Source: Thermostichus sp. DRC_bins_24
GTDB lineage: Bacteria > Cyanobacteriota > Cyanobacteriia > Thermostichales > Thermostichaceae
DNA length: 15,797 nt
Direction of reading: 5' to 3'
Assembly (NCBI GenBank): GCA_039794845.1
Contig: JAUQVK010000047.1
Location: forward strand, 826-16,622
A model generated the notes under the pieces. The model was given only the letters and a program-made list of their open reading frames with translations, had not been told where the DNA came from and ran no database searches. This document shows, one piece after another, positions 1,951-15,208 of the stretch. Numbering within the stretch: the stretch's first letter is position 1; the number at the start of each line of letters is the position of its first letter. Both the position numbers and the translations under genes were made by a program.

Positions 1951-1972
1951 TTAACAAGACTTTAACAAGACT
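1951..1972. repeat. Perfect 11-bp tandem repeat TTAACAAGACT x2
   Basis: TTAACAAGACT-TTAACAAGACT, immediately past the stop codon of the 1972-3024 gene. Confidence 0.85.
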
Positions 1973-3024
1973 CAACCCACCTGAGCGCGAAAACCACGAG
2001 CTGCTGTCAGTGCCCCATACGGATCCCCTTTGTAGAGGCCATAGTGCATCAACGACATCCGCCGTAGCCCCAACTGTGATACTTCTGTCAGCCAGTCCGG
2101 TTGGCTCATGATCTGAAAATCTGTAGCTACTGTGTCGGCCCGCCCGCCGCTGGGGTGTTTGTCTTTGATAGACGGTTCGTAGTGGGCCAGCATCAAGTTG
2201 GGATGAATCGGAGAGAACAACTGACAACAGAGGCGGATTTGCTCGGGATTGCCGGGATCCGGCCCATTCAGTTCAGGGTTAAACTCTCCCGGTTGGCGCT
2301 GGCGCATCGATTGAAAGGCGATCCCATCCATTTGGCTCATCATCTCGGCAAAGGGATCCACCATGCTGCGCCCGGCACCCCGTTCCGGCTGGTCAAACGT
2401 GGCGATCCAGCCTCCCCAGCAAAGGGCAACCTGGGCTTCTGGCAGCCGATCTTTAATGACTTGCCGGGCCCGCAACAGGTTCTGCATCAGGGCTTGGTAA
2501 TAGGGGGCGGTGTCGGCATTGTAGGTATCGGCGGGCAGTCGCCAGTAGGAAAACTCGGTGGCCAGGCTCCAGTCGGTGCGGATCCCATGGGGGTTGGCCT
2601 GGGCGATGTAACCGGCCAACTCCGCCATATCCTGCACGAATTGCTCAGAGATGTGATACTCGCCACAGGGGAGGATGGTATCGTCTTCCCAGGTGATCAC
2701 ATGCAGGCTGTAGCCCCGCTCAAACCACTCCGATAACCATCCGGCCTGATGCCAATCTCGCCAAAAGGACAAATCCCCCGTTTTGTGGTCAAAGCTATTC
2801 AGCCAGCCACTCAAAAAGTGGGGATCCCATCCCTGAGCCACCGCCGCCACCTCGGGATCCGATACGATCTCCCAGATAAAACGACCGGGATCCTCCCCAA
2901 TGCCCACTTGCCAGGGGCCGAAGCCAGAACCTCTTCTCTTAGCCGTCAGGAAAGCCCCTAGGGTAGCAGCAGCCAGGGATCCTCCCACTTGCAAAAAGCG
3001 TCGCCGACTCTGCTTAACCCTCAT
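1972..3024 (-). CDS. Tat-exported glycoside hydrolase-like TIM-barrel protein (GH26/clan GH-A-like)
   Basis: Twin-arginine signal SRRRFLQ plus a hydrophobic stretch; Trp-rich; strand motifs LHVITWE, SLATEF, VALCWGGW, MDGIAFQ and LMLAHYEP follow the GH26-type barrel order. The CDS is secure; the family is inferred. Confidence 0.65.
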   Translation of the reverse strand: MRVKQSRRRFLQVGGSLAAATLGAFLTAKRRGSGFGPWQVGIGEDPGRFIWEIVSDPEVAAVAQGWDPHFLSGWLNSFDHKTGDLSFWRDWHQAGWLSEWFERGYSLHVITWEDDTILPCGEYHISEQFVQDMAELAGYIAQANPHGIRTDWSLATEFSYWRLPADTYNADTAPYYQALMQNLLRARQVIKDRLPEAQVALCWGGWIATFDQPERGAGRSMVDPFAEMMSQMDGIAFQSMRQRQPGEFNPELNGPDPGNPEQIRLCCQLFSPIHPNLMLAHYEPSIKDKHPSGGRADTVATDFQIMSQPDWLTEVSQLGLRRMSLMHYGLYKGDPYGALTAARGFRAQVG

Positions 3025-3092
3025 GGTATCTCTTCTCTATGGTTCTATGGTTAGAGTTTTATAGTATCTACCCAACTGTAGGGTCTACGTAT

Positions 3093-4697
3093 TTACCCAG
3101 TCTGACGTGCCAACAGCCGCACCTGCGGGGATCCGTACACCTCCACAAACCCCGGCAAAGAGCCAGAGCTAAGCTCCGGCCAAAATTGTAGCAGCGGATC
3201 CGATGGGCTCCAGGGAGCTTCTGGCCCCGACAGCAGCAGGTAATCCACCCACTCCTGGGGTTGTTGCAGGGCGATGGAAAACTCGTATTGATGAGGTGTG
3301 ATGAATAGGCGTGGATCCCCAGCCCAGAAGATCGCCTCAAAGTGTAGGGCATCATCGGTCAGCACCCGTTGTCTTGGCCGCAGATGTTGATGCAGATACT
3401 GCCCCACCTGCTGTTGTGCCTGCCGCTGCGCTTGCCAGTGTTGCAGGGGTTGGCTAGCTGGACTTGGCTGCGGTTCCGCTTGTAGCTGTTGCCAGAGGGC
3501 CTGTTCTTCCGGGAGCAGGGATCCCTGGGTAAGGACAAAGCCACTGCTTAGTAAACTCAGCACCAGCAGAGCCGTTACACCAATTTTTTGTCCCAACCGG
3601 CTCTTCCCATCGGCAGTCAGATAGGATCCCAGCACCAGCGGCATCAACACCCAAAACACCCCAAAGCGGCTCAACTCCGGCAAAAAGAGGCCCTGCCCAA
3701 AAGAAACCACCAATAGGACCAGCGGCAAAGCCCAGACCAGCCCCCACACCCAGCGCCCAGGCCCAAAGGAAAGAAAGGTTCCCAACCCCAACATCAGGTA
3801 AGCCGGCACCACCGCCAGTAGCCAGATCCCAGCCTGGGCCAGGCCATCCCATCCCCCTGCCGAGATCAGCCAGGCCTGCAGTTGGGGTAGCTTCAGCCCA
3901 CTGCTGGGCCAGTAGGTAAAAGCCCAGGGATCCCCAACCGCCAACCCATTCACGTACAGCCAGCCCAGGATCAACGTCAGGCTCATAAAGCTGACCACCA
4001 AAACCGCCGTGCCCCGAAACCCCCAAGACTCTTGCCAAAAGGCCAACAGCACCATCAGACCCACCCAGATCAGCAGCCACCAACTCTCCCAACGCAGCAC
4101 CATCAACGGTGCTAGACAGAGGCCCAAGAGCACCAAGCGTAAGGTGAGCAGCAAGGATTGCTGACTTTGACCGACAATCCCTAATGCGGAGGATCCGGTT
4201 ACCGGATCAACTTCCGCTCGTAATGCCTTTTTCACCTTACCCACGTGACTCAGGGGCAGCAGCAACGCCATATTGATCCCCAGCAACCCTGCCGTCGCAA
4301 TCCACGTGGGGCTACGCAACAGCATCAAGCCAAAGCTGGGCTGCACCGCCATCAACATTCCCCACAGCCAGCGCCACCCCACCCCCACCGGCAGTCGGGC
4401 CAACTGTCGCCACCACCCCAGCAACAGCAGCGATCCCAGCAGAATGTGCAACAGCAACGGGGATCCCAGCAATGCCGTCCCCAACACCAACAGGGGCGGG
4501 AAACTGATCCCCACCACCGACAAACGCGGATCCGGCCCCACTGCCGCCACGGATCCCGTGTAGCCCAGAAATTGTGTCTCCAAACTCCTCCACCCCCAGC
4601 CCCATTCCAAACCCACCAAAGCCAGGGGGAACAACAAAAACGGGATCCCAATGGGCCCGAAAAACCGGAAGAAACTCTTAAACTTTGTCGGTAGCAT
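3093..4697 (-). CDS. Polytopic membrane protein, GT-C/PMT (GT39-like) architecture with a C-terminal soluble domain
   Basis: About 11-13 hydrophobic segments, a first-loop motif PRLSVVGISFPPL and a soluble tail (VLTDD...DPRLFITP...VDYLLL). Start placed at ATG 4697 (AGGA upstream) rather than 4832. Confidence 0.6.
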   Translation of the reverse strand: MLPTKFKSFFRFFGPIGIPFLLFPLALVGLEWGWGWRSLETQFLGYTGSVAAVGPDPRLSVVGISFPPLLVLGTALLGSPLLLHILLGSLLLLGWWRQLARLPVGVGWRWLWGMLMAVQPSFGLMLLRSPTWIATAGLLGINMALLLPLSHVGKVKKALRAEVDPVTGSSALGIVGQSQQSLLLTLRLVLLGLCLAPLMVLRWESWWLLIWVGLMVLLAFWQESWGFRGTAVLVVSFMSLTLILGWLYVNGLAVGDPWAFTYWPSSGLKLPQLQAWLISAGGWDGLAQAGIWLLAVVPAYLMLGLGTFLSFGPGRWVWGLVWALPLVLLVVSFGQGLFLPELSRFGVFWVLMPLVLGSYLTADGKSRLGQKIGVTALLVLSLLSSGFVLTQGSLLPEEQALWQQLQAEPQPSPASQPLQHWQAQRQAQQQVGQYLHQHLRPRQRVLTDDALHFEAIFWAGDPRLFITPHQYEFSIALQQPQEWVDYLLLSGPEAPWSPSDPLLQFWPELSSGSLPGFVEVYGSPQVRLLARQTG

Positions 4698-4946
4698 TGC
4701 TTCGTCCTGAACCAAGAAAATCCAAGCGCAGAATAAATATCCAACTGTTTTAAGGGTTGAGGGGTTTTGCCAGCCGCTTGGACGGTGATAAAACACACTG
4801 GGAGTAGCCATTGTGCAAAGACAAGCTAGCATTCCCTTTGGGCGAATGTTTCTCCGAGTTTTCGCTTAGAGCAATTCAGCAGGATCCCCGATTAAGCCCC
4901 CCATTTCAAGTGTGAGGATAAAAAAGACCTCGAAAGGATACAACCA

Positions 4947-5351
4947 ATGTTGCAAGCTGTGAGCGAAGCCGAAGCTGCCGCCCCGATTCTAGAGCTTTTG
5001 CCCTCAACTTCCCCCAACGCTGAGACCCGCCCCTGGGGAGCCTTCTTGGTTTTGGAAGAAGGCCCGATGTACAAGATCAAGCGCATTGAAGTGAAACCAG
5101 GCCATCGCCTCAGTTTGCAGATGCACTACCATCGCAGCGAACACTGGGTTGTAGTTATGGGCACGGCTCGTGTGACCTGCGGTGACGAAGTGATGTTGCT
5201 GACCTCCAACCAATCCACCTACATTCCCCCCTGTACCCCACACCGTTTGGAAAACCCCGGCACGATTCCATTGGTCTTGATCGAAGTGCAAAACGGGCAA
5301 TACCTAGGCGAAGACGACATCGTGCGGTTTCAAGATGACTATGCCCGCTAG
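4947..5351 (+). CDS. Stand-alone mannose-6-phosphate isomerase type II cupin (ManC C-terminal domain)
   Basis: RPWG...YKIKRIEVKPGHRLSLQMHYHRSEHWVVV...HRLENPG...IEVQNGQYLGEDDIVRFQDDY. Confidence 0.93.
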   Translation: MLQAVSEAEAAAPILELLPSTSPNAETRPWGAFLVLEEGPMYKIKRIEVKPGHRLSLQMHYHRSEHWVVVMGTARVTCGDEVMLLTSNQSTYIPPCTPHRLENPGTIPLVLIEVQNGQYLGEDDIVRFQDDYAR

Positions 5352-5402
5352 GGATCCAGCCGGAAGCAGCCGAAATATTGGGATCCGAAGGGAGGCAAAA
5401 AG

Positions 5403-7352
5403 GTGTCGCATTCCTGGAAATCTTGGAGCCTAATGGCCGTCAGCTTGCTGTGTTGGGGCAGGGCTCCGGCCCAAGCTCAGGAGGCCGAAACGGTTTCTCT
5501 GCAAACCCTCGGCTACAGCCGCTCTATTCTTCTTCAGGGGCCCAGCCCAGAACTCAATCTCGGGATCCCTGCCCCCAATGGAGGGATCGACCCCTCCGCC
5601 AGCTTTGTGCAATTGCGCTTGGATCCCTCGCCAGTTTTGGGGCCGGAATCGACGGTGCGGGTGTTGATCAACGAGGAGCCGATGGAGGTATTCTCGATTG
5701 GGCAGTTGCGGGCCAACCCCGTTGTGCAGGTACCGATCCCCAATCTCCCCCCCGCCGAGCGTTTTATCAACCTGTCGGTGCAGCCTTTTCTAAGCATCAG
5801 TGGCGATATCTGTCGGGATAGTGGCACCGGTAACCTGTTTTTAACGGTGGGGCGCGACAGCTTCTTTCAAGTGGTGCCCCGCATCCCCGAGAGCACGGTG
5901 GCCGACTTTTTCCGCCCCCTCTACAGCCAGCTCAGCCTCGTGGTGCCTGCCGATCTCAGCCCCGAAACCGCTGAAGCCGCCCTCTGGCTGTACAGCCTCC
6001 TTGCCCATCAGTTCCCCCAAACGCCGATCCTTTGGACGAGTGGCCCCGTGAGCGGCCCCCAGGTGGTTTTGGAATCGCCAAATTTCTCTCCACAACTGCA
6101 GCGTCAGGGATCCACCTTGCGAGTGGCGGCCAGTGGGGAAGCAATCCGGGCTTTGTACTCCGAATGGCAACGGCCAGGGCTGATCGGCGGGGCTGTGGGG
6201 GTGGAGTCTGCCCCCGGGATGGATTCCCCAATCCAGGGGAACCGACGCAGTCTGCGGGAGTTGGGCTTTGCCGATCCGACGCTGCGGGGCATTGGCACCC
6301 AGTCTTTGCTGCTGAACTTCGATCTGGCCCAGTTAGGGGGACGTCCCCGCGATTTGGCCTTCCAGCTCAATGCTGTCATGACCCCGGTGGATGGTCGCGC
6401 CGGGGATCGGCTGAACGGTCAGGTGTTTTTGAATGGAGTGCTGCTGCAAACCTACAATCTGACGGGCCGAAATCAATTCAGTGAAAGCCTTCGGCTGCCC
6501 TCGGGGCTCCTACGCCGCACCAATACCCTAGAGTTGCGCTTCGACTATGCCCCCAGCCAAGGCAGTTGTGGGGGATCCCCCACCCCCTTAACCTTACAGG
6601 TGCGTGGCGACAGCTCTGCCCTCAGTTGGAACGGTTACGAAGCTGCGCTGGGGGAACTGCAGGAGATCCCGGCTCTGTTGCAGGGATCCGGCCAGTTGCT
6701 TCTGCCGCTCGGGGATCCCGACCTGATTGCCAGTGCCGCCTATTTGTTGGGGAGCCTCAGCCGTCTGTCGCTGCTGCCCCTCTTGCCAACCGTAGTGCCG
6801 CTGCCCGAATCCCTGACGGGATCCACCCTGCCCGCCGGGGATCCCGATTGGCGGCTGATCGTGGCTGGGCCAGACCAGGTGAATCTGAACACCCCGATTC
6901 GTCTCGGATCCCGGTTTGAAATTCTCAACCCCCTCAATCAGCAGGCGGTGTTGGCGGTACAGCCGGAGGATGAGCTGGGCCTGCTGCAGTACTTTTTGCA
7001 GGGGGGTAAACCCACCCTCTGGCTCTCCTGGTGGGGACCCGATCCGACTATGGCTGAGCGGTTGAGCCGTTCGCTTGCGGATCCCCGCACCCTTTTGGCC
7101 GGTCAAATACAGGGGAATGTGGTCACGGCCTACGCCGCAGCCCCGGATCTGACACAGGTGCAAAGCTGGGATCTAAGTGGCCAAACCTATCAAGTTCACT
7201 ACCCAGACCGCCTGGACTGGCGGCTACTGTTGTGGCGATATCGGTTCCTGCTGGTAATTGTGGTGGCCCTCTTGGGGGCGGGAGTTGCCTGGGGTCTCTA
7301 TCAACGCCTAGCCCGGCTGCCAGAGGTGCCCACCCCCCCATCCCAAAGCTGA
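5403..7352 (+). CDS. BcsB-like periplasmic polysaccharide co-polymerase subunit
   Basis: GTG start with GGAGG at 5391-5395; signal peptide ending AQA; two jelly-roll-like repeats (SLQTLGY...TVRVLINE; SLRELGF...GQVFLNG...NTLELRF), each with one Cys (GDICRD at 5811, QGSCGG at 6567) as in the BcsB inter-CBD disulfide; C-terminal TM anchor FLLVIVVALLGAGVAWGLY; 13 nt upstream of a GT2. Confidence 0.8.
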   Translation: MSHSWKSWSLMAVSLLCWGRAPAQAQEAETVSLQTLGYSRSILLQGPSPELNLGIPAPNGGIDPSASFVQLRLDPSPVLGPESTVRVLINEEPMEVFSIGQLRANPVVQVPIPNLPPAERFINLSVQPFLSISGDICRDSGTGNLFLTVGRDSFFQVVPRIPESTVADFFRPLYSQLSLVVPADLSPETAEAALWLYSLLAHQFPQTPILWTSGPVSGPQVVLESPNFSPQLQRQGSTLRVAASGEAIRALYSEWQRPGLIGGAVGVESAPGMDSPIQGNRRSLRELGFADPTLRGIGTQSLLLNFDLAQLGGRPRDLAFQLNAVMTPVDGRAGDRLNGQVFLNGVLLQTYNLTGRNQFSESLRLPSGLLRRTNTLELRFDYAPSQGSCGGSPTPLTLQVRGDSSALSWNGYEAALGELQEIPALLQGSGQLLLPLGDPDLIASAAYLLGSLSRLSLLPLLPTVVPLPESLTGSTLPAGDPDWRLIVAGPDQVNLNTPIRLGSRFEILNPLNQQAVLAVQPEDELGLLQYFLQGGKPTLWLSWWGPDPTMAERLSRSLADPRTLLAGQIQGNVVTAYAAAPDLTQVQSWDLSGQTYQVHYPDRLDWRLLLWRYRFLLVIVVALLGAGVAWGLYQRLARLPEVPTPPSQS

Positions 7353-7365
7353 GGCTCTCGGGTTC

Positions 7366-9681
7366 ATGATTCGTTCTGTCACGCCGAGTTTTGCCATGTT
7401 GCTCGTAGAATCCTGGCTGATCCGCACCGGGTATCTCACGGCTGAGCAGCTGGCAGAAGCCCGGGAGTATCAACAACGGGCCTTTTGTTCTCTGCCCCGT
7501 GCCCTCTGGAGCTTGGGGTTAATGCATCCTTTCAAATTTGCAAGGCTCTGTGCCCACATTACGAATCGCCCCACCTTGCGGGACTGGCTGAAGCAGCATC
7601 CTCTCGACCCGGAGTTGCTCTGGCTGGTGGGAGCGGTAGATTTGGTGCCGGTGCGCTTTTTGCTCTGTGGTTGGGCCGATGCCAACACGGTGGTGGTGGC
7701 CACCGAAGAACTGGGGCACCCAATGGTGCGGCAAAATGTGCAACGCCTCTGGCCCGAAGCCGCGATTTGGGAGATCCCGGCCACCGAGCAGCAGATCCTC
7801 TCGGTGATTGTGGAGCGCAAACTGGTGGCCGAGTTTTTGGGCAGCAAACTCACGCTGGAACAATGGCAGGCGGTGCAAGCGACCCGGCGCCGTACGGGAT
7901 CCAGCCTCGGACAGGTTTTAACCCGCCTCAACTACCTTGATCCGAAAGACTACCTGGGCATGATCACCCAGTTGCTGGGCTACCCGGTGATGTCAGACCT
8001 GATCGGCGCCGGCCTACTTTACGTCGATAAAACCCTGAGCCAACGGTTCGACCCCCGCGGCATGATGCGCCACCTCTTCTACCCCCTCGCCTGGGTGGAT
8101 ACCGAGACCCTGATGGTGATGGTGCAGGATCCGCTGGATCTGGCCGTGGATGAGGCCGTTTATGCCCTGCGGCCCGGCCTGCGCATCGAGAAAGTCTTGG
8201 GCACCGAAGCGGATCTCACCCAACTGTTGGCCCAAACCCACGGTTCCGGGTTCAGCCAAGATGCGGTGTTTAGGTTACTGGCGCGCCTACCGGAAGAATC
8301 CGCCTCGCGGGTGTTCACGTTGCCCCAGATCCTGGTGGGCTATGGGCTGCTGGTAGCCTTGGTTTGGGGTCTGACTTTGGCTCCCTGGAGCACCCTCACG
8401 GTGTTGGTGTCATTGGTCAACGTATTCTACATCGGCTCCATTCTTTACAAATTGCTCCTCAGTCTGGTGGGATCCGCCGACCAATTCCATCAAATCACCG
8501 ATGCAGAAGTGGCCGCCGTGGATGACCGCAGTTTGCCCATCTACACGGTGTTGGTGCCGGTATACAACGAACCAGAGGTGATGCCGATCTTAATCAGATC
8601 TTTGTCTAAACTGAACTATCCGCACGAGAAGTTGGATGTTTTGATCCTGCTGGAGGAAAAAGATCAAGTCACCATTGATGCTGCCCGTGCTGCCAATCCT
8701 CCCAATTTCATTCGCCTGATTCGAGTACCGGAAAGTCATCCGAAAACAAAGCCCAAAGCCTGTAACTATGGCCTTGCCTTCGCCCGTGGCGATTACCTAA
8801 CCATTTACGATGCCGAAGATATTCCCGACCCGGATCAACTGAAAAAAGCGGTGATTGCCTTCCGCAAAGGGGATCCCAGCCTGGTGTGCGTACAAGCGGC
8901 TCTCAACTATTTCAACCGTGAGGAGAATTTCCTCACACGCATGTTCACGCTGGAGTATTCCTATTGGTTCGACTATCTCTTGCCAGGATTGGAAACTCTA
9001 AAAATGCCGATCCCCCTCGGAGGAACCAGCAACCATTTCCGTACCGATCGCCTGCGGGAGCTAGAAGGATGGGATCCCTTTAATGTGACCGAAGATGCGG
9101 ATTTGGGCATTCGGGCCAGCCAACATGGCTACACCGTCGGCGTGATCAATTCCACCACCTACGAAGAAGCCAACTGCGCCACCAAAAATTGGATCCGGCA
9201 ACGTTCCCGCTGGATCAAGGGTTATATGCAGACGTGGTTGGTACACAATCGCCATCCCCTGCGTTCTCTGAGCAAACTGGGCCTAAAAAACTGGCTCTCC
9301 TACCAATTCTTCATCGGTGGCACCTTTGTAACCTTCCTCACCAGCCCAATCATGTGGCTGATGTTTGTGTTTTGGTGGGTTACCCGGGCCAGTTGGCTGC
9401 AAAATCTGTTTCCCAGTTGGCTGATCTATATTGGCTTGTTTAATTTGATCCTGGGCAATGCCATTGGCATCTATCTAAATTTGATCGCGGTCTTCCGGCG
9501 TGGCTATTACGATCTGGCCCTCTATGCCCTCCTCAACCCCATCTATTGGCAGCTACACTCCATGGCCGCCTACATGGCCCTTTGGCAACTGTTTACCAAG
9601 CCCTTCTACTGGGAAAAAACCGTGCATGGCCTGAGCAAATTCACCCAGGCTAAGGTTCATGCTGCCGGCGAGTCGGCGTGA
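7366..9681 (+). CDS. Processive GT2 (cellulose-synthase-like) with two N-terminal MshEN/GspE-N modules
   Basis: VLVPVYNE, TKPKACNYG, YDAED, GGTSNHFR, NVTEDADLG, QRSRW (D,D,D,QxxRW), about 2+3 TM helices, terminal WEKTVHG, no PilZ. Residues ~11-149 and ~150-293 are repeated MshEN-like helical motifs plus T2SSE_N-like folds (LMVMVQDPLD). Confidence 0.88.
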   Translation: MIRSVTPSFAMLLVESWLIRTGYLTAEQLAEAREYQQRAFCSLPRALWSLGLMHPFKFARLCAHITNRPTLRDWLKQHPLDPELLWLVGAVDLVPVRFLLCGWADANTVVVATEELGHPMVRQNVQRLWPEAAIWEIPATEQQILSVIVERKLVAEFLGSKLTLEQWQAVQATRRRTGSSLGQVLTRLNYLDPKDYLGMITQLLGYPVMSDLIGAGLLYVDKTLSQRFDPRGMMRHLFYPLAWVDTETLMVMVQDPLDLAVDEAVYALRPGLRIEKVLGTEADLTQLLAQTHGSGFSQDAVFRLLARLPEESASRVFTLPQILVGYGLLVALVWGLTLAPWSTLTVLVSLVNVFYIGSILYKLLLSLVGSADQFHQITDAEVAAVDDRSLPIYTVLVPVYNEPEVMPILIRSLSKLNYPHEKLDVLILLEEKDQVTIDAARAANPPNFIRLIRVPESHPKTKPKACNYGLAFARGDYLTIYDAEDIPDPDQLKKAVIAFRKGDPSLVCVQAALNYFNREENFLTRMFTLEYSYWFDYLLPGLETLKMPIPLGGTSNHFRTDRLRELEGWDPFNVTEDADLGIRASQHGYTVGVINSTTYEEANCATKNWIRQRSRWIKGYMQTWLVHNRHPLRSLSKLGLKNWLSYQFFIGGTFVTFLTSPIMWLMFVFWWVTRASWLQNLFPSWLIYIGLFNLILGNAIGIYLNLIAVFRRGYYDLALYALLNPIYWQLHSMAAYMALWQLFTKPFYWEKTVHGLSKFTQAKVHAAGESA

Positions 9682-9775: not shown

Positions 9776-10249
9776 ATGAGTTCTAGCTCTTCCGATTGGT
9801 TTACCCGTGCCCGCCACATCTTTTACGGCACAGCCACCGCCTTGGTGGAGATCCTCCAGGATCCCGAGAAGCGCACCGAAAATCTAAACCGCCTATCGAT
9901 GGATTTGGGGCAACTGGCGGAAGAACTGGAGCAGAAAGGAGAGCTGACCGAGCAAGAGGCGATTCGTTACCTGGAGGGCCTCAAGGATGCCGCCGCCAAT
10001 ACCCCCTCCACAGCCCCAGATAGTGAAATGCCCGGGAGCGTCCCCAGCCCCTCTGAGCCTGTCTCCAGCTCCACAGCGACTGCTCCTGTAGCACCCGCCA
10101 GTACCCAAACGCCCATCTCCAAAGAAGAAATCGCCGAGTTGATGGAGCTAACCTATCAGATCGAGTCATTGCGCTTGGATTTGGAACGGTTGCGCACCGA
10201 GCCATCCTCTCCTTCTTCTGATACGGCTTCTGACAAGTCCTCGGCCTAA
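9776..10249 (+). CDS. Hypothetical coiled-coil protein, possibly phasin-like
   Basis: Helical N-domain with KGELTEQEAIRYL, P/S/T/A-rich linker, C-terminal heptad repeat (ELMELTYQIESLRLDLERL); 5 nt before trmD. Confidence 0.7.
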   Translation: MSSSSSDWFTRARHIFYGTATALVEILQDPEKRTENLNRLSMDLGQLAEELEQKGELTEQEAIRYLEGLKDAAANTPSTAPDSEMPGSVPSPSEPVSSSTATAPVAPASTQTPISKEEIAELMELTYQIESLRLDLERLRTEPSSPSSDTASDKSSA

Positions 10250-10254
10250 GTCTT

Positions 10255-11031
10255 GTGCGTTTTGATATCGTTACCCTGTTTCCTGAGTTTTTTGAAGGAC
10301 CCCTGCAAGTTGGGTTGCTGGGTAAGGCCTTGCAGCAGGGGATTGCCCAGGTCAGCTGTACCAATCCACGGGACTTTGCCAGCGATAAGCACCGCCGTGT
10401 TGATGATGAACCCTATGGCGGAGGGGTGGGCATGGTGCTCAAGCCGGAGCCCTTTTTTGCTGCAGTTGAATCTCTTCCCCGGCTGGATCCTTATGAGATT
10501 GTTCTGCTGACTCCCCAAGGGCAAACCCTCCACCAGGAGCTACTGCAAAAGCTGGCCCGAAAGGCACAACTGATTGTGCTGTGTGGCCAGTACGAAGGCT
10601 TTGATGAACGGATTCGCCAACACCTGGCCACCTGCGAGATCTCTTTGGGAGATTTTGTCCTGACGGGGGGAGAAATTCCTGCTCTGGCCTTGATCAACGG
10701 TGTGGTGCGGCTCTTGCCAGGCACAGTCGGTAAGGTAGACTCACTGAAGAGTGAAAGCTTCGAATCAGGGTTGTTGGAATATCCCCAATACACCCGTCCA
10801 GCGGAGTTTCAAGGCCACAAGGTGCCAGATGTGCTCCTCTCGGGTGACCACCAAGCAATCGCCCGTTGGCGGCAGCAGCAGCAGTTGGTTCGCACCTGGC
10901 AACGACGGCCCGACCTATTGGCAAAACGCCCCCTCAGCCCTCATGAACAACAGTTGCTGGCAGCAGGGTTGGCTGAGCAGCTTACAGAGCTTACAGATGT
11001 GGATATGGAGGAACAGAATCGATGCCTGTAA
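10255..11031 (+). CDS. trmD: tRNA (guanine37-N1)-methyltransferase
   Basis: MRFDIVTLFPE, VDDEPYGGGVGMVLKPEP, LCGQYEGFDER, SLGDFVLTGGE, LLEYPQYTRP, VPDVLLSGDH. Confidence 0.98.
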   Translation: MRFDIVTLFPEFFEGPLQVGLLGKALQQGIAQVSCTNPRDFASDKHRRVDDEPYGGGVGMVLKPEPFFAAVESLPRLDPYEIVLLTPQGQTLHQELLQKLARKAQLIVLCGQYEGFDERIRQHLATCEISLGDFVLTGGEIPALALINGVVRLLPGTVGKVDSLKSESFESGLLEYPQYTRPAEFQGHKVPDVLLSGDHQAIARWRQQQQLVRTWQRRPDLLAKRPLSPHEQQLLAAGLAEQLTELTDVDMEEQNRCL

Positions 11032-11372
11032 ATCATCCCAATCATCTTCTTAACCCACCGCTGGTTTCCTGGCACGGGATCCCTTTAGCCCTGGTCCTGT
11101 TGGTCGGGATCCCTGGGGTGGCCTTGGCCCAAAACGAGAACGTCAACGATGTAATTCGCCGCGACGGCAATTCCAACCTGTTCGATGGCACCAGCATTGA
11201 TATGAACGATCTCTTCCGGGCTGCCAACTACCTTTCCAACCAAAATGCCGCCTCCCGCTGGGATGGCAAGGCCGGGATCGATGCTGCCGTCGAGCAATTT
11301 AACCAATCCCGCCGCCGCCCCCTGCAGCTCTCCCCCAGTTCATTGCAGCCTGGACCCGCGGCCAAGCCCTAA
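11022..11372 (+). CDS. Small hypothetical secreted protein
   Basis: Hydrophobic segment ending in ALA-Q (signal peptidase I-like); overlaps the trmD stop by 10 nt. Confidence 0.65.
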   Translation: MPVNHPNHLLNPPLVSWHGIPLALVLLVGIPGVALAQNENVNDVIRRDGNSNLFDGTSIDMNDLFRAANYLSNQNAASRWDGKAGIDAAVEQFNQSRRRPLQLSPSSLQPGPAAKP

Positions 11373-11475
11373 AATCGGAGCCCATCCCAAATAAATCTGT
11401 TAGGATCGCTAAGCCGATCCTGTATGTGCTGAAATACAGTGCACCGTTTTCGGGATCCATTAGGAGAGTACCACC

Positions 11476-11745
11476 GTGGTCAAGAGCACACCTTCCAGCA
11501 AAGCCGATACGGAGCAGCGTCTAGATCCTTCCAGTCGGGGTAACTCCAAAGAAGGTTCTGCTGAGTCCAAAGGCCTTGCAGGCTTTGTGAAAGAAACCCG
11601 TGAGGAGTTGGGCAAAATTGTTTGGCCAAGCCGTCAGCAGCTCATTAGCGAATCGGTGGGGGTTTTGTTGATCGTGCTGGCCTTTGCCTCTTTCATCTAC
11701 CTGATCGATCAAGCGTTCAGTTGGATCGCAATTCAATTGTTCTAG
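11476..11745 (+). CDS. secE: Preprotein translocase subunit SecE
   Basis: FVKETREELGKIVWPSRQQL plus a single TM; AGGAGA RBS; upstream of nusG. Confidence 0.97.
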   Translation: MVKSTPSSKADTEQRLDPSSRGNSKEGSAESKGLAGFVKETREELGKIVWPSRQQLISESVGVLLIVLAFASFIYLIDQAFSWIAIQLF

Positions 11746-11865
11746 TGTTCTGGCCAGCCCAAGGAGGGGATCCCTGTTCATGGGGATGCGGGTGATGGAG
11801 ATGCGTAACCGGCTTCTCCTCGGAGAAGCGGAATGATACAGAAACGATAAGGTGGAGGACGTTGG

Positions 11866-12519
11866 GTGATGAGCCTAGAGCCAAGTCAGCGGGAGGAGTA
11901 TGGATCCTTAGATCCGGCATCGGAAACGCTGGATGCTGAGGAGCAAGAAGGTCATCGTAACCTGCGTTGGTATGCTGTGCAGGTGGCTTCGGGCTGCGAA
12001 AACAAGGTGAAAAGTACCCTGATGCAGCGGGCTGCCGCTTTGGATGTGGCAGATCAGATCGTCGAAGTGGTGATCCCGAAGCGCATGGGCTTCAAGCTGG
12101 ATCGCGTTGGCAAACGCCAAGAGCAGGAAGAAAAGATCTTCCCGGGCTATGTGCTGGTGCGCATGGACATGAACGACGATTCTTGGATGGTGGTGAAAAG
12201 CACCCCCAACGTGATCAACTTTGTTGGTACTGAAGAAAAGCGGGCCTATGGCCGTGGGCGGGGACATGTGACGCCGCGTCCCCTTAGCCCTGGGGAGATT
12301 CGGCGCATCTTCAGCAGTGTCGAGGTGGAGGAAGTGCCCCTCAAGATCGATATGGCTGCTGGGGATCGGATCGAAGTGCTGTCGGGCCCTTTTCAGGGTT
12401 TCTATGGGGAGGTGGTGGAAGTCAGCCCAGAACGGGGCAAGCTAAAGGCCCTGATCTCGATCTTTGGGCGCGATACCCCGGTAGAATTAGAGTTTGGTCA
12501 AGTGCGAAAAGAGGTGTAA
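11866..12519 (+). CDS. nusG: Transcription termination/antitermination factor NusG
   Basis: WYAVQVASGCENKV, KIFPGYVLV, KOW motif GDRIEVLSGPF, SIFGRDTPVEL; GGAGG at 11854-11858. Confidence 0.98.
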   Translation: MMSLEPSQREEYGSLDPASETLDAEEQEGHRNLRWYAVQVASGCENKVKSTLMQRAAALDVADQIVEVVIPKRMGFKLDRVGKRQEQEEKIFPGYVLVRMDMNDDSWMVVKSTPNVINFVGTEEKRAYGRGRGHVTPRPLSPGEIRRIFSSVEVEEVPLKIDMAAGDRIEVLSGPFQGFYGEVVEVSPERGKLKALISIFGRDTPVELEFGQVRKEV

Positions 12520-12528
12520 CAGCAGTTC

Positions 12529-12954
12529 ATGGCTAAAAAATTGGTGGCAGTGGTTAAGTTGGCCATCCAAGCGGGCAAAGCCACCCCTGCACCCCCAATT
12601 GGCCCGGCGCTCGGTCAACATGGGGTCAACATTATGGCCTTTTGCAAAGAATATAACGCCAAAACGGCGGATCAGGCGGGGATGGTGGTGCCTGTTGAGA
12701 TCTCCATTTTCGAAGATCGCAGCTTTACCTTCGTCCTCAAGACCCCGCCCGCTTCGGTATTGATCAAAAAGGCACTCGGCATCGAATCGGGTTCTAGTGA
12801 ACCCCATAAAACCAAAGTGGGATCCCTAAGTAAGGCTCAGTTGCGTCAGATTGCCGAGCAAAAATTGCCGGATTTGAATGCCAACGATGTCGAGTCGGCC
12901 ATGAAAATCATCGCCGGAACCGCCCGCAGCATGGGCGTGACGGTGGCCGACTGA
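12529..12954 (+). CDS. rplK: 50S ribosomal protein L11
   Basis: [42 protein letters not shown]. Confidence 0.99.
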
Positions 12955-13003
12955 GGTGGATAGCCTTCAATCCCGATTAATTGAATTGTTCAAGCAAACC
13001 ATT

Positions 13004-13034
13004 GTGGGGGAGAGACATTCTCGCTAGCACCCCG
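13004..13034 (+). promoter_or_regulatory. Ribosomal protein L1-binding autoregulatory RNA element upstream of rplA
   Basis: GGGGGAG-AGACATTCT-CGCTAGCACCCC forms an asymmetric internal-loop hairpin like the L1 operator, abutting the GAGGAG RBS of rplA. Confidence 0.7.
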
Positions 13035-13044
13035 AGGAGAAACC

Positions 13045-13755
13045 ATGGCTCGAAAGATATCCAAACGTATGCAGGCCTTGCGGGAGAAGGTGAAGCCCAT
13101 CGCCTATGCTCCGGAAGCGGCCTTGGCCCTGATGAAAGAAACCGCCACCGCCAAATTTGAAGAGGCGGCAGAGGTTCACATCCGTCTGGGGATTGATCCC
13201 AAGTATGCCGACCAACAGTTGCGAACCACCGTGGTTCTGCCCAAGGGCACGGGCCAAGAGGTCCGGGTAGCGGTGATTGCCCGGGGTGAAAAGGTTACGG
13301 AAGCCCAGAACGCCGGTGCCGATCTGGTGGGGTTTGAAGAGCTCATCGACGAAATCAGCAAAGGCATGATGGATTTTGACCTCTTGATCGCCACGCCTGA
13401 TGTCATGCCGCAGGTGGCCAAGCTGGGGCGGCTGCTAGGGCCGCGCGGCCTCATGCCTTCTCCCAAAGGGGGAACCGTTACCACCGATCTGACCCAAGCG
13501 ATTAGAGAGTTTAAGGCCGGTAAGCTGGAGTATCGGGCCGACCGTACGGGCATTGTGCACGTCATGTTCGGCAAATGCAAATTCACCGTGGAGGCTCTGC
13601 TGGAGAACCTAAAGGCCGTACAGGAGTCGGTCGATCGTAACCGTCCCCCGGGTGCCAAGGGCAAATACTGGCGAACCCTACATGTTTCTGCTACAATGGG
13701 TCCTGCGATTGAGGTCGATATCAATGCCCTTCGAGATCTGAAGTTGGCCGTCTAG
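13045..13755 (+). CDS. rplA: 50S ribosomal protein L1
   Basis: [46 protein letters not shown]. Confidence 0.99.
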
Positions 13756-13838
13756 GCTGCCATTGGCAGTGTAAGGGGTCGGAGATCTTTGTCTACAGGG
13801 TGAGTTTGTGAACTTTCAGGAGATCCCCGACAGGACAC

Positions 13839-13858
13839 TTTTCCACAACTTTTCCACA
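13839..13858 (+). promoter_or_regulatory. Two tandem DnaA-box-like 9-mers (TTTTCCACA)
   Basis: TTTTCCACA at 13839-13847 and 13850-13858, 2 nt apart; matches TT(A/T)TNCACA. Confidence 0.55.
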
Positions 13859-13871
13859 GCCGAATAGTCTG

Positions 13872-14008
13872 AGCCGAAGACAGCAGGTGCCGATGGGCTT
13901 AATGGCCTGCCGAGGTTTGAGTAGGGTGCAGCGGGATCCCTTGTGGCTCGCACTTTGCCACGTGCTTACCTCAATGCGTCTTGGCTTCGGCTAAGGCGCA
14001 TTCTGTTT
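13872..14008 (+). ncRNA. Ribosomal protein L10 leader (cis-regulatory RNA)
   Basis: CCGAAGACAGCAGG...TTAA..CCTGCCGAGG core, followed by a 13-bp hairpin AATGCGTCTTGGC-TTCG-GCTAAGGCGCATT (13973-14002) and CTGTTT, upstream of rplJ. Confidence 0.88.
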
Positions 14009-14082
14009 GGCAGATGAAATCCACCCCATTCCGGCAACATCTGTTTAATCATTCATCATCATTCAACTGAGGAGGTGAGCAC

Positions 14083-14646
14083 ATGGGCAAGCAACCTGTA
14101 GCGAAAAAAGCGGAGGTCGTCGATGAAGTGCGATCCCTGCTGCAAGCCAGCCAAATGGTGTTGGTGATCGACTACAAGGGGCTGACAGTTTCGGAGATGA
14201 ACCAACTGCGGGCAGAGTTACGCAAGTCGGATTCTGTTTGCATGGTTGTGAAAAACACTCTTATGCGGCGGGCCATCGCCGACCAAAAAGCTTGGGCAGG
14301 GATCATTCCCTTTTTGGCAGGGCCAACAGCCTTTATCTTGATTCGGGGCAACATTACAGAAGCTCTAAAGGCTTATCAGGATTTTGCCAAGCAAACCAAG
14401 AAAACCGAGTTCCGTGGTGCGGGTATCGAAGGCCTATCCCTAACCTTAGATCAGGCCAAAGCCATCGCCGACCTGCCCCCCAAGGAGGTGCTCATGGCCC
14501 AAGTGGCGGGCGGCCTCAACTCGGTGGCTACCAAGTTGGCCGTCGGACTCAATGCTGTGCCCACTCAGGTGGCGCGTGGCATCAACGAGATCCCGGCCTC
14601 TCTGGGACGGGCCATTCGGGCCATTGCCGACAAAGAGGCCGCATGA
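14083..14646 (+). CDS. rplJ: 50S ribosomal protein L10
   Basis: IDYKGLTVSEMNQLRAELR, VVKNTLMRRA, GPTA, IADLPPKEVL; GGAGGTGA RBS. Confidence 0.98.
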   Translation: MGKQPVAKKAEVVDEVRSLLQASQMVLVIDYKGLTVSEMNQLRAELRKSDSVCMVVKNTLMRRAIADQKAWAGIIPFLAGPTAFILIRGNITEALKAYQDFAKQTKKTEFRGAGIEGLSLTLDQAKAIADLPPKEVLMAQVAGGLNSVATKLAVGLNAVPTQVARGINEIPASLGRAIRAIADKEAA

Positions 14647-14797
14647 TGGGAGATCCGTCTGTATCCCCTCCATTCCACCGGTCTGTCGGAGAGTATCCTG
14701 CAGCTGGAAATGGATTTGCCTCACAGAGCTGGCACCCATCCAGTCCATCAATCAGACCACACATTATCCATTCAGTTACCCCTAAGGAGAAAACACC

Positions 14798-15208
14798 ATG
14801 GCTTCAGAGCGCGTTGAAAAAATCCTCGAAGATCTGAAAGCGCTGAGCTTGCTGGAAGCTTCTGAATTGGTGAAAGCCATCGAAGAGGCCTTCGGCGTCA
14901 GTGCAGCAGCCCCAGCGGGCGGCATGATGATGGCGGCTCCCGTGGCAGCGGCAGCAGCAGCTCCGGCAGCAGCGGCCGAACCTGTGGAAGAACAAACTGC
15001 CTTCGATGTCATTCTCGAGGCTGTTCCAGCTGATAAGAAGATCGCCATTCTCAAGGTGGTACGCGAGTTGACTGGCTTGGGCTTGAAAGATGCCAAGGAC
15101 CTCGTGGAAGCTGCTCCCAAAGCTGTTAAGGAAGGGGCTACCAAAGAGGAAGCCAACGACATCAAGAAGAAGCTGGAAGAAGCTGGTGCCACCGTCAAGG
15201 TGCAGTAG
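14798..15208 (+). CDS. rplL: 50S ribosomal protein L7/L12
   Basis: [23 protein letters not shown], Ala-rich hinge, [28 protein letters not shown]. Confidence 0.99.

Follow-up and report, generated by a model that had tools for sequence, protein, structure and literature searches.

A proposed Xag/Sfz-type exopolysaccharide synthesis cluster in a Thermostichus genome

The window analysed here is a stretch of 15,797 nucleotides from the cyanobacterium Thermostichus sp. DRC_bins_24, part of contig JAUQVK010000047.1 (C47) in a genome of 3.5 Mb which is 99.9% complete. Among named organisms, its proteins are closest to those of Synechococcus sp. Nb3U1 (87% for the hydrolase-like protein) and of Thermostichus metagenome-assembled genomes. 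A DNA run labelled 'hot springs metagenome' contains 0.99 of the sampled words and may be where the window comes from. Five genes of the window are proposed to encode the inner-membrane and periplasmic parts of a synthase-dependent exopolysaccharide (EPS) system of the Xag/Sfz type, which is named after gene clusters of Xanthomonas and of iron-oxidising bacteria, and for which we propose a mannose-containing polymer. We put the probability of this reading at about 0.7. The genes encode a family 2 glycosyltransferase (GT2) with the QxxRW motif, a BcsB-family partner, a membrane protein with the GT-C fold, a hydrolase-like protein of clan GH-A and a phosphomannose isomerase (PMI) cupin. This set agrees with the synthase-dependent type of system that an original prediction, made from the letters of the window alone, had put forward. 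In related genomes the pair of GT2 and BcsB is joined nearly everywhere by the GT-C protein, in cyanobacteria and Aquificaceae by the hydrolase and in most lineages by a sixth, barrel-like protein. The genes and their parts are as follows, in positions of the window:

1972 to 3024, minus strand: periplasmic (beta/alpha)8 hydrolase-like protein with a twin-arginine translocation (Tat) signal, of an unclassified clan GH-A-like family, 350 amino acids (aa)
3093 to 4697, minus strand: polytopic membrane protein with predicted GT-C fold, XagC/Sfz3-type, with a C-terminal globular domain (about aa 421-532) like that of oligosaccharyltransferases (OST), 534 aa
4698 to 4946: divergent spacer between the two units, 249 bp
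4947 to 5351, plus strand: stand-alone type II phosphomannose isomerase cupin, 134 aa
5403 to 7352, plus strand: BcsB-family periplasmic subunit, Sfz1-type, with signal peptide and C-terminal transmembrane anchor, 649 aa
7366 to 9681, plus strand: membrane GT2 synthase, XagB/Sfz2-type, with two N-terminal MshEN-like modules, 771 aa
7366 to 7821, plus strand: MshEN-like module 1 of the GT2 protein, aa 1-152 (NF053729 below threshold, alignment)
7822 to 8271, plus strand: MshEN-like module 2, aa 153-302, membrane-proximal (Pfam: PF05157, PDB: 5htl)
8542 to 9222, plus strand: catalytic domain of the GT2 protein, aa 393-619, with DAED, TED and QRSRW (Pfam: PF13641, E-value 1.9e-24)

The coordinates reproduce the layout first described, with five open reading frames (ORFs) in two divergent units, intergenic gaps of 68, 51 and 13 nt (the last between the BcsB-like and the GT2 gene) and a spacer of 249 bp, which had been given as about 250 bp. 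The longest frame of the GT-C gene extends to 4832; the start at 4697 is backed by an identical database record of 534 aa.

The strongest evidence that these genes belong together comes from other genomes. A scan of one genome per species gave 572 relatives of the GT2 protein, of which the best 80 loci (denoted by L numbers) were kept, so the sample is biased towards the best matches. The neighbouring proteins were clustered, and hidden Markov models of the clusters were searched in all ORFs of the 80 loci. The four families which accompany the synthase were counted in all 80 loci and separately in those with 15 kb or more of sequence (48 long loci):

BcsB-like protein: 70 of 80 loci; 47 of the 48 long loci; mostly directly upstream of the GT2 gene
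GT-C-like protein: 71 of 80 loci; 44 of the 48 long loci
Hydrolase family: 22 of 80 loci; 18 of the 48 long loci
Sixth family, c3 (barrel): 52 of 80 loci; 35 of the 48 long loci

The complete set of four is found in 20 loci, 12 of them cyanobacterial and eight from Aquificaceae, while a single locus (L025, on a contig of 7 kb) has none of them. The 80 loci span at least 11 phyla, with Cyanobacteria, Aquificota, Chloroflexota, Synergistota, Bacillota, Thermodesulfobacteriota and related 'delta' lineages, Ignavibacteriota/Kryptoniota/Bacteroidota, Acidobacteriota, Eremiobacterota, Proteobacteria and Thermotogota. A gene set that is found again and again around GT2 homologs from so many phyla is far more than chance; the original prediction had named co-occurrence in other genomes as a test, and the recurrence across phyla bears it out. 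The usual order outside the cyanobacteria, all on one strand, is BcsB, c3, GT2 and GT-C, followed in Aquificaceae by the hydrolase and often by a full-length gene for GDP-mannose pyrophosphorylase and phosphomannose isomerase (GMP/PMI). In five Gloeomargarita-type loci only the pair of BcsB and GT2 is found nearby.

The two divergent units could be unrelated neighbours, one with the GT-C and hydrolase genes and the other with the cupin, BcsB-like and GT2 genes, as they lie on opposite strands with only a spacer in common. Against this, 71 of the 80 GT2 loci hold the GT-C-like gene, which in most non-cyanobacterial phyla directly follows the GT2 gene on the same strand, and the hydrolase gene follows the GT-C gene in the eight Aquificaceae loci; we find a chance arrangement of this kind barely credible. 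Accidental proximity of the genes was thus rejected on synteny.

The GT2 protein matches several Pfam GT2 families, among them PF13641 over the catalytic domain, and its translation holds the motifs TKPKACNYG, DAED, WEKTVHG and QRSRW. The Pfam scan found no PilZ domain in it, so that scan and translation agree with the subfamily first described, a TKPKACNYG/DAED/WEKTxHG synthase with two MshEN-like modules and without PilZ. From its D, DxD, TED and QxxRW motifs it is predicted to be a processive-type GT2 with its own multi-helix membrane domain. Cyanobacterial members are about 764-797 aa long (with one ORF call of 920), and those of most other phyla about 609-704 aa (with outliers of 535 and 856). 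Among 32 orthologs sampled across phyla about 110 alignment columns are invariant, and identities between phyla are 46-53%, so the core of the synthase is strongly conserved in lineages rich in thermophiles.

The 649-aa protein has a signal peptide and a C-terminal transmembrane helix in its translation and matches the BcsB family (Pfam: PF03170) in two stretches with an E-value of 2.2e-14. Its score of 53.2 bits against a cut-off of 21 upholds the earlier description as BcsB-like, and BLASTP gives two local matches to E. coli BcsB. Against the NCBIfam BcsB equivalogs, with their cut-offs of 750-922 bits, it scores no more than about 20, which is why we regard the protein as a family-level BcsB rather than the BcsB of cellulose synthesis.

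Membership of the BcsB Pfam family is also what one would expect if the cluster encoded a divergent synthase of cellulose or another beta-glucan, a Bcs variant using UDP-glucose with the cupin as a bystander. The cluster shares with BcsA-BcsB-BcsZ-BcsC the roles of synthase, BcsB subunit, periplasmic hydrolase and outer-membrane channel. Moreover, the best NCBIfam match of the GT2 protein is CelA (TIGR03030, E-value 4.3e-20), BLASTP aligns it to E. coli BcsA with 25% identity over 293 aa (E-value 5e-14), and a gene of the GH5 'cellulase' family lies near some related clusters. The CelA match, however, scores 71.3 bits against a cut-off of 699.1, and like the BcsB equivalogs it is far under threshold. 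An invariant GGTSNHF in the GT2 family aligns opposite FFCGS of BcsA, and the alignment to E. coli NfrB (24% identity over 426 aa, E-value 2e-9) extends beyond this, across the membrane domain as far as W[DE]KT.H. Unlike Bcs systems, the window has a GT-C partner and has neither PilZ, a GH8 hydrolase nor a TPR-barrel BcsC; among the proteins of the window, which is where BcsC was looked for, none has a Pfam match to GH8 BcsZ or to BcsC. Together with the GDP-mannose genes in 19 of the 80 loci, this makes a cellulose-like product quite unlikely.

The NfrB system of E. coli (Junkermeier and Hengge 2021, PMC8669469) is alike in that a GT2 synthase is regulated by a fused MshEN domain, and its product depends on UDP-ManNAc. 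It differs in the C-terminal position of MshEN, in its partners, the TPR-barrel protein NfrA and YbcH, and in having neither BcsB nor a GT-C protein. No NfrA- or YbcH-like gene was found in the window.

The closest resemblance is to clusters which have been named in two groups of bacteria. The original prediction had called the combination of genes uncharacterised; it matches xagBCD, bcsB-xagBCD and sfz1-5 as described in three papers (PMC3609779, PMC4643136, PMC8250860). In the stalk-forming Ferriphaselus and Mariprofundus a bcsB-xagB-xagC-xagD cluster is found, and the genes of the iron oxidisers were reported as xagBCD-like (Kato 2015, PMC4643136). The genes sfz1-6 were named by Koeksoy 2021 (PMC8250860), with bcsB-xagBCD (sfb1-4) as the Ferriphaselus counterpart. 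There, Sfz1 is BcsB-like, Sfz2 combines an 'EpsE-like T2SS' (T2SSE_N) N-terminal domain with a GT2 domain carrying QxxRW, Sfz3 is a membrane protein of about 500 aa, Sfz4 is a GH10-like protein of about 330 aa and Sfz5 has about 310 aa; no function is given there for Sfz3 and Sfz5 (PMC8250860). Thus the sfz and bcsB-xagBCD clusters share with our system a BcsB-like protein, a T2SSE_N/MshEN-GT2 synthase, a membrane protein of about 500 aa, a hydrolase of about 330 aa and a protein of about 310 aa, and gene sizes and domain descriptions in PMC8250860 and PMC4643136 match the window cluster.

Among Xanthomonas, xagABCD is known from X. campestris and X. oryzae pv. oryzicola. In the latter it is upregulated in an rpfG mutant, and xagA and xagB are needed for the enhanced biofilm of this mutant and not for virulence (Zhang 2013, PMC3609779). 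Reviews describe the xag system as repressed by diffusible signal factor (DSF)/Clp signalling.

Sequence blocks point the same way. Sfz2, taken from the supplement on strain PV-1, and the GT2 protein of the window have in common KPKACNY, PDQLKKAVIAFRK, IPLGGTSNHF, NVTED, NWIRQRSRW and FYWEKT.HG; of these, KPKACN and QRSRW were found by motif search and the others by eye. Sfz3 carries, again by eye, the W.Y.NW.F.GDP and LLEN..P.FPL blocks of the GT-C-like family, and a search for the motif YPPL gave no match in the Sfz sequences. Sfz5 carries the block IP.GY.....RLG.G of family c3 by eye. The window is unlike the sfz clusters in its two divergent units, its barrel gene on another contig, its extra degenerate MshEN module, its PMI cupin and its apparently different hydrolase family. 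We therefore regard the cluster as a probable cyanobacterial variant of the xag/sfz kind, which is named and known genetically and by comparative genomics and is biochemically unstudied; its own traits would be the rearranged layout, the extra degenerate sensor module, the dedicated PMI cupin and a hydrolase of an unclassified family. In the parts of the xag/sfz literature that were available there is no mention of a GT-C fold for XagC/Sfz3, a barrel for Sfz5, a named polymer or cyanobacteria, and our literature searches brought up no other work that reports these.

The 534-aa protein has no match to any Pfam family at an E-value of 0.1 or below, and a PDB sequence search gave nothing useful. 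Its AlphaFold2 (AF2) model has a predicted local distance difference test (pLDDT) score of 89.4. The model was compared with 48,161 chains in the VIA structure search, which is independent of Foldseek. Ranks 1-22 and 24-25 are all taken by proteins of GT-C fold: glycosyltransferases or soluble domains of these, and the subunits PIG-M and PIG-U of the GPI pathway. The best matches are ALG3 (Z 15.3) and ArnT (Z 14.9, rmsd 4.7 over 397 aligned residues, spanning residues 7-534), followed by ALG12, AglB, Pmt1/2, Pmt4, PIG-M, AftA/B, PimE and PglB. Not until rank 23 does an unrelated chain appear, which is FtsW with a Z of 6.3. With GT-C folds filling the top 22 ranks, the earlier idea of a GT-C-like membrane modifier is confirmed as far as the predicted fold goes. 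Furthermore, 5 of 35 homologs match PMT_2 (Pfam: PF13231, best E-value 8.2e-07), and a homolog on a Geobacillus plasmid, which matches the GT-C-like profile at 99.8%, is annotated as 'glycosyltransferase family 39' (GT39).

For residues 421-532 the search gives matches to the globular domains at the C-termini of AglB (Z 7.7) and PglB (Z 6.9). In the 35 sequences of the family R58, P68, Y248 and D449 are invariant, and D449 sits in an invariant DD pair of this C-terminal domain. Both the fold and this domain would suit a cell-attached glycan, in which the GT-C protein acts as a ligase that moves the product of the synthase, or a mannose from polyprenyl-phosphate mannose, to a protein, lipid or wall acceptor. 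This alternative is also favoured by cassettes without a barrel gene in the Gram-positive hosts Geobacillus, Anoxybacillus and Ammonifex, and by the stalks of iron oxidisers, which stay attached to the cell (PMC8250860). No acceptor candidate is found in the cluster, though, and in diderm lineages the BcsB partner and the outer-membrane barrel fit export better; in addition, xag mutants of Xanthomonas lose biofilm matrix (PMC3609779). We consider a cell-attached product of this kind improbable.

The proposed route across the outer membrane is the sixth family, c3. Its proteins have about 260-300 aa, a signal peptide and an aromatic last residue, and the family profile weakly matches a 12-stranded outer-membrane barrel of COG4313 (PDB: 4rl8). 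PF13557 is matched directly by 1 of 34 members, with an E-value of 0.012. We assign c3, with modest confidence, as a probable outer-membrane conduit or barrel like Sfz5.

The c3 gene directly follows the hydrolase gene in five of six Thermostichus-type loci. In the source genome it lies outside the window on contig C17 (C17:17056-17895), where its product is 76% identical to that of the related locus L005 and its neighbours, judged from their translations, are a cytochrome-c-biogenesis-like and a universal-stress-like gene. A search of the window with the partner barrel protein (tblastn) for a barrel gene or its remnant gave only E-values of at least 0.03. The earlier statement that no BcsC or porin lies in the window is thus correct for the window and misleading for the system, as a barrel occurs in 52 of 80 loci and is encoded here on contig C17.

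A synteny breakpoint at 1975 to 1987, identified by nucleotide comparison with L005, lies directly beyond the stop codon of the hydrolase gene, at the place which the barrel gene occupies in close relatives. Similarity of the window to L005 starts at 1987, and upstream of it is a segment of low GC content with genes of an energy-coupling factor (ECF) transporter.

The hydrolase-like protein has no Pfam (E-value of 0.01 or below), NCBIfam or PDB sequence match, and the GH26 family (Pfam: PF02156) in particular is not matched. Its twin-arginine motif SRRRFLQ is present, with RR invariant in all 24 homologs, and its alignment-based AF2 model (pLDDT 83.6) is an eight-stranded beta/alpha barrel. 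Foldseek and VIA both place the model in clan GH-A, where GH1, GH26 and GH53 are tied at Z values of about 17 (Z 17.4 for the GH26 lichenase 2bv9). In an Atlas feature search GH26 comes first, with a score of 0.95 and 170 shared features. Hence from the earlier description as a Tat-exported, GH26-like hydrolase the Tat signal and the clan-A TIM barrel stand, and GH26 is the best lead, not a proven family. As a family assignment GH26 was not accepted, since the fold scores are tied with those of GH1 and GH53.

In clan GH-A the catalytic glutamates are located on strand 4 and on strand 7, the latter being the nucleophile. W112-E113 and E157 are invariant in all 24 homologs. The strand-7 residue E283 is Glu in 15 of 15 cyanobacterial sequences and Met in 9 of 9 Aquificaceae sequences, so the Aquificaceae homologs may be non-catalytic or use another residue.

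The family is small, with 144 representatives at an E-value of 0.001 or below, 85 at 1e-10 and 16 at 1e-30 among 1.84 billion sequences. In none of the 24 relatives scanned does a Pfam model cover the matched region. PA14, CBM60, SLH or CWB2 domains occur in six of them, as would be expected of a secreted carbohydrate-active enzyme. Ten relatives from the profile search were checked by name and all are hypothetical or unnamed; the organisms given are Thermoflexus, Anaerolineae, Chloroflexia and Hydrogenobacter. With the profile of the hydrolase, a word-indexed search for homologs returned cyanobacteria and one Aquificaceae protein only. Sfz4 carries IGTEL and VLEFG and reads, by eye, as a classical clan-A enzyme with other motifs.

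A GH5 'cellulase' family protein (Pfam: PF00150, E-value 2.5e-06) is encoded beside the cluster at L017:1922-3289, with members of the same family at L012, L018, L065 and L073; the hydrolase slot therefore varies between lineages. Besides this, a lipoprotein-like family of about 400-465 aa without Pfam match (c7) was observed at L010:12334-13725, L012, L017, L018 and five other loci. Its gene comes after the GT2 gene in Chroococcidiopsis-type loci; in those of the Kryptonia type it is flanked by the BcsB-like gene and the barrel gene. Judged by eye, the family may have a GH8-like acidic motif.

In the N-terminal part of the synthase, MshEN (Pfam: PF05157) is found in aa 214-292 with an E-value of 2e-09 and 37.7 bits against a cut-off of 23.1, and the MshE structure (PDB: 5htl) aligns to aa 153-284. 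The MshE-type motif NF053729 scores 27.4 bits at aa 18-55, under its cut-off of 38. Module 1 is confined to the cyanobacterial GT2 proteins among the 80 loci and adds about 140 residues.

The MshEN motif which binds cyclic di-GMP (c-di-GMP) is a tandem of 24-residue motifs, RLGxx(L/V/I)(L/V/I)xxG...LxxxLxxQ, with a strict and a relaxed form (PMC5013675). We scored sites by 11 key positions of this published motif. The GT2 protein of the window has no match to either form in either module, and the best score in its MshEN region is 6 of 11. Its four half-sites start with L, S, L and S instead of Arg; in module 2, half-motif I is short of one residue and half-motif II shows S/N substitutions, and in module 1 both half-motifs are degenerate in the alignment. 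Most non-cyanobacterial orthologs have tandem sites at positions i and i+29 with 8-11 of 11 key positions, and several pass the strict pattern, which the proteins of Ignavibacteria/Kryptonia-type, Acidobacteriota and Eremiobacterota loci do not. As all four half-motifs are degenerate, c-di-GMP gating of the window synthase, which the original prediction had implied, is doubtful and may be weakened, lost or re-purposed. The genome has 10 GGDEF matches, from which we conclude that the c-di-GMP signal itself probably exists in this organism. Orthologs with intact and with degenerate sites offer a natural comparison for c-di-GMP gating in this class of synthase.

The proposed donor sugar comes from the cupin. 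Its assignment as a mannose-6-phosphate isomerase, already made in the original prediction, holds with an E-value of 5.5e-50 (Pfam: PF01050), and it matches the C-terminal third of the bifunctional GMP/PMI model (TIGR01479) at 2.1e-50. The genome has two stand-alone PMI cupins, and with the second copy on contig C85 the one in the window looks dedicated to the cluster. Of the 80 loci, 19 have a gene with the PMI cupin, mostly adjacent and co-oriented; they come from Cyanobacteria, Aquificota, Synergistota and Bacillota. Outside the cyanobacteria this gene is mostly a full GMP/PMI gene of 450-500 aa; NTP_transferase and MannoseP_isomer domains were confirmed by Pfam in both loci checked.

In Xanthomonas, according to two reviews, Clp represses xagABC and activates manA, which encodes a beta-1,4-mannanase that disperses biofilm. 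Because of the 19 loci with PMI/GMP genes, the dedicated cupin, the GH26 lead and this link to ManA, our best guess is a GDP-mannose-derived, mannose-containing polymer. GDP-mannose could equally feed a polyprenyl-phosphate-mannose donor for the GT-C protein.

In the mechanism that we propose, the cupin would make mannose-6-phosphate for conversion to GDP-mannose, and the GT2 protein, guided by the BcsB-like subunit, would polymerise and translocate a mannose-containing, possibly beta-mannan-like chain. The GT-C-fold protein would act on the chain in the periplasm, either decorating it from a polyprenyl-phosphate sugar or transferring it to an acceptor. Finally, the hydrolase would trim or release the chain and the barrel would pass it across the outer membrane.

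Several observations count against this reading, or against parts of it. The link to Xag/Sfz consists of motif blocks recognised by eye and published descriptions, and the homology to Xanthomonas is indirect, through the clusters of iron oxidisers. The hydrolase motifs TWEN, GNPQ and FQSM have no match in the Sfz sequences, Sfz4 included, and no Xanthomonas or Mariprofundus name is among the ten hydrolase relatives checked; for both reasons the hydrolase slot seems to be filled by different families in the window and in the Sfz/Xag clusters. GT-C glycosyltransferases have a conserved catalytic Asp or Glu in the first periplasmic loop. The 35 sequences of the GT-C-like family have no invariant acidic column in this loop, and so catalysis by the protein is not assured. 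The barrel assignment of c3 is weak, with an E-value of 0.003 for 4rl8 and PF13557 on 19% of the members of one look-alike Atlas cluster. The donor sugar is taken from gene neighbourhood only, with 61 of the 80 loci having no PMI/GMP gene in the available DNA, and ManA could also act on other polymers of Xanthomonas. Moreover, degenerate MshEN motifs are no proof of lost c-di-GMP binding, and the genome has its 10 GGDEF matches.

The xag and sfz genes have been linked to the biofilms of Xanthomonas and to the twisted stalks of iron oxidisers, and our literature search on them found no report on what the polymer is, how the system is regulated or what three of the proteins do. What is new here is the GT-C fold proposed for the Sfz3/XagC-type protein, the suggestion of an outer-membrane barrel for the Sfz5 type, GDP-mannose as a testable donor sugar and a hydrolase of a small family without Pfam model. 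For cyanobacteria this would be a rare route to EPS, outside the types of a 2025 review of cyanobacterial cellulose synthesis, whose available part describes cyanobacterial systems without bcsB. Culturable thermophilic hosts such as Hydrogenobacter, Geobacillus and Anoxybacillus could supply heat-stable proteins for biochemistry and cryo-electron microscopy.

The distribution of the synthase within the cyanobacteria is patchy. At an E-value of 1e-60 or below it occurs in 11 of 11 further species of the genus (one as a partial match at a contig end), in none of 7 genomes that represent other genera of the family, in none of 12 more distant relatives and in 1 of 200 genomes sampled evenly across the phylum. 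Named cyanobacterial matches to the GT2 protein include Chroococcidiopsis, Leptolyngbya, Coleofasciculus, Acaryochloris and Gloeomargarita. Horizontal spread would be in keeping with so scattered an occurrence, with synthase identities of 46-53% between phyla and with a plasmid-borne copy.

The plasmid copy (L086) is on pEF60063-1 of Geobacillus stearothermophilus (CP128455.1, 31-41 kb), a conjugative plasmid of type MOBQ/MPF_T from a hot-spring isolate. Its cassette consists of a nucleotidyltransferase (GMP/PMI), BcsB, MshEN-GT2 and GT39 genes, with a DDE transposase, a tyrosine recombinase and IS256 on its flanks. As the cassette is carried by a conjugative plasmid beside transposase and recombinase genes, the system is mobile.

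A wider proposal is that Xag/Sfz systems form a distinct pathway found across the bacteria. A GT2 synthase assisted by BcsB would build a beta-mannan-like chain from GDP-mannose, and an obligate GT-C/OST-like partner would decorate or ligate it in the periplasm. The pathway would have spread horizontally among organisms of hot-spring mats, including by a conjugative plasmid, and its cyanobacterial branch would have become uncoupled from c-di-GMP through degraded MshEN sites. Taken in all its parts this is tentative, and on balance we doubt it. If true, it would be a hybrid of the synthase-dependent and the lipid-carrier/GT-C logics, outside the textbook pathways of EPS synthesis.

A protein of about 920 aa with a CotH kinase domain (Pfam: PF08757) is encoded at L058:11010-13769, and the same family is found at L068, L069 and L081. 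In Kryptoniota and Bacteroidota loci this gene adjoins the cluster together with VTC and DUF4956 genes. Sfz6 of Mariprofundus ferrooxydans has, by eye, a CotH-like region at its end, so the association with CotH may be recurrent.

The spacer of 249 bp gave no site in a consensus promoter scan, and no RNA run that contains positions 1972-9681 was listed. For the window the promoter and terminator scan was uninformative, with 1 promoter-like site where 2.9 were expected and 11 terminator-like sites where 10.2 were expected.

Outside the cluster, positions 1-1500 of the window have a GC content of 44-45%, against 55-60% elsewhere in the window. The low-GC segment (1-1971) holds an ECF-transporter ATPase gene at 2-721 and an ORF for a membrane protein of 280 aa at 743-1585, both on the minus strand. 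Abutting the breakpoint at about 1987, this segment could be an insertion or a rearrangement.

On the other side, between the GT2 gene and trmD, there is an ORF of 157 aa at 9776-10249 on the plus strand, rich in Ser, Pro and Ala. It has no family beyond a sub-threshold match to HTH_12 and no homolog in the 80 related loci. Positions 10255-15208, also on the plus strand, hold genes for TrmD-like and NusG-like proteins and the ribosomal proteins L11, L1, L10 and L7/L12, named from their translations only; on this side the cluster is embedded in the core genome.

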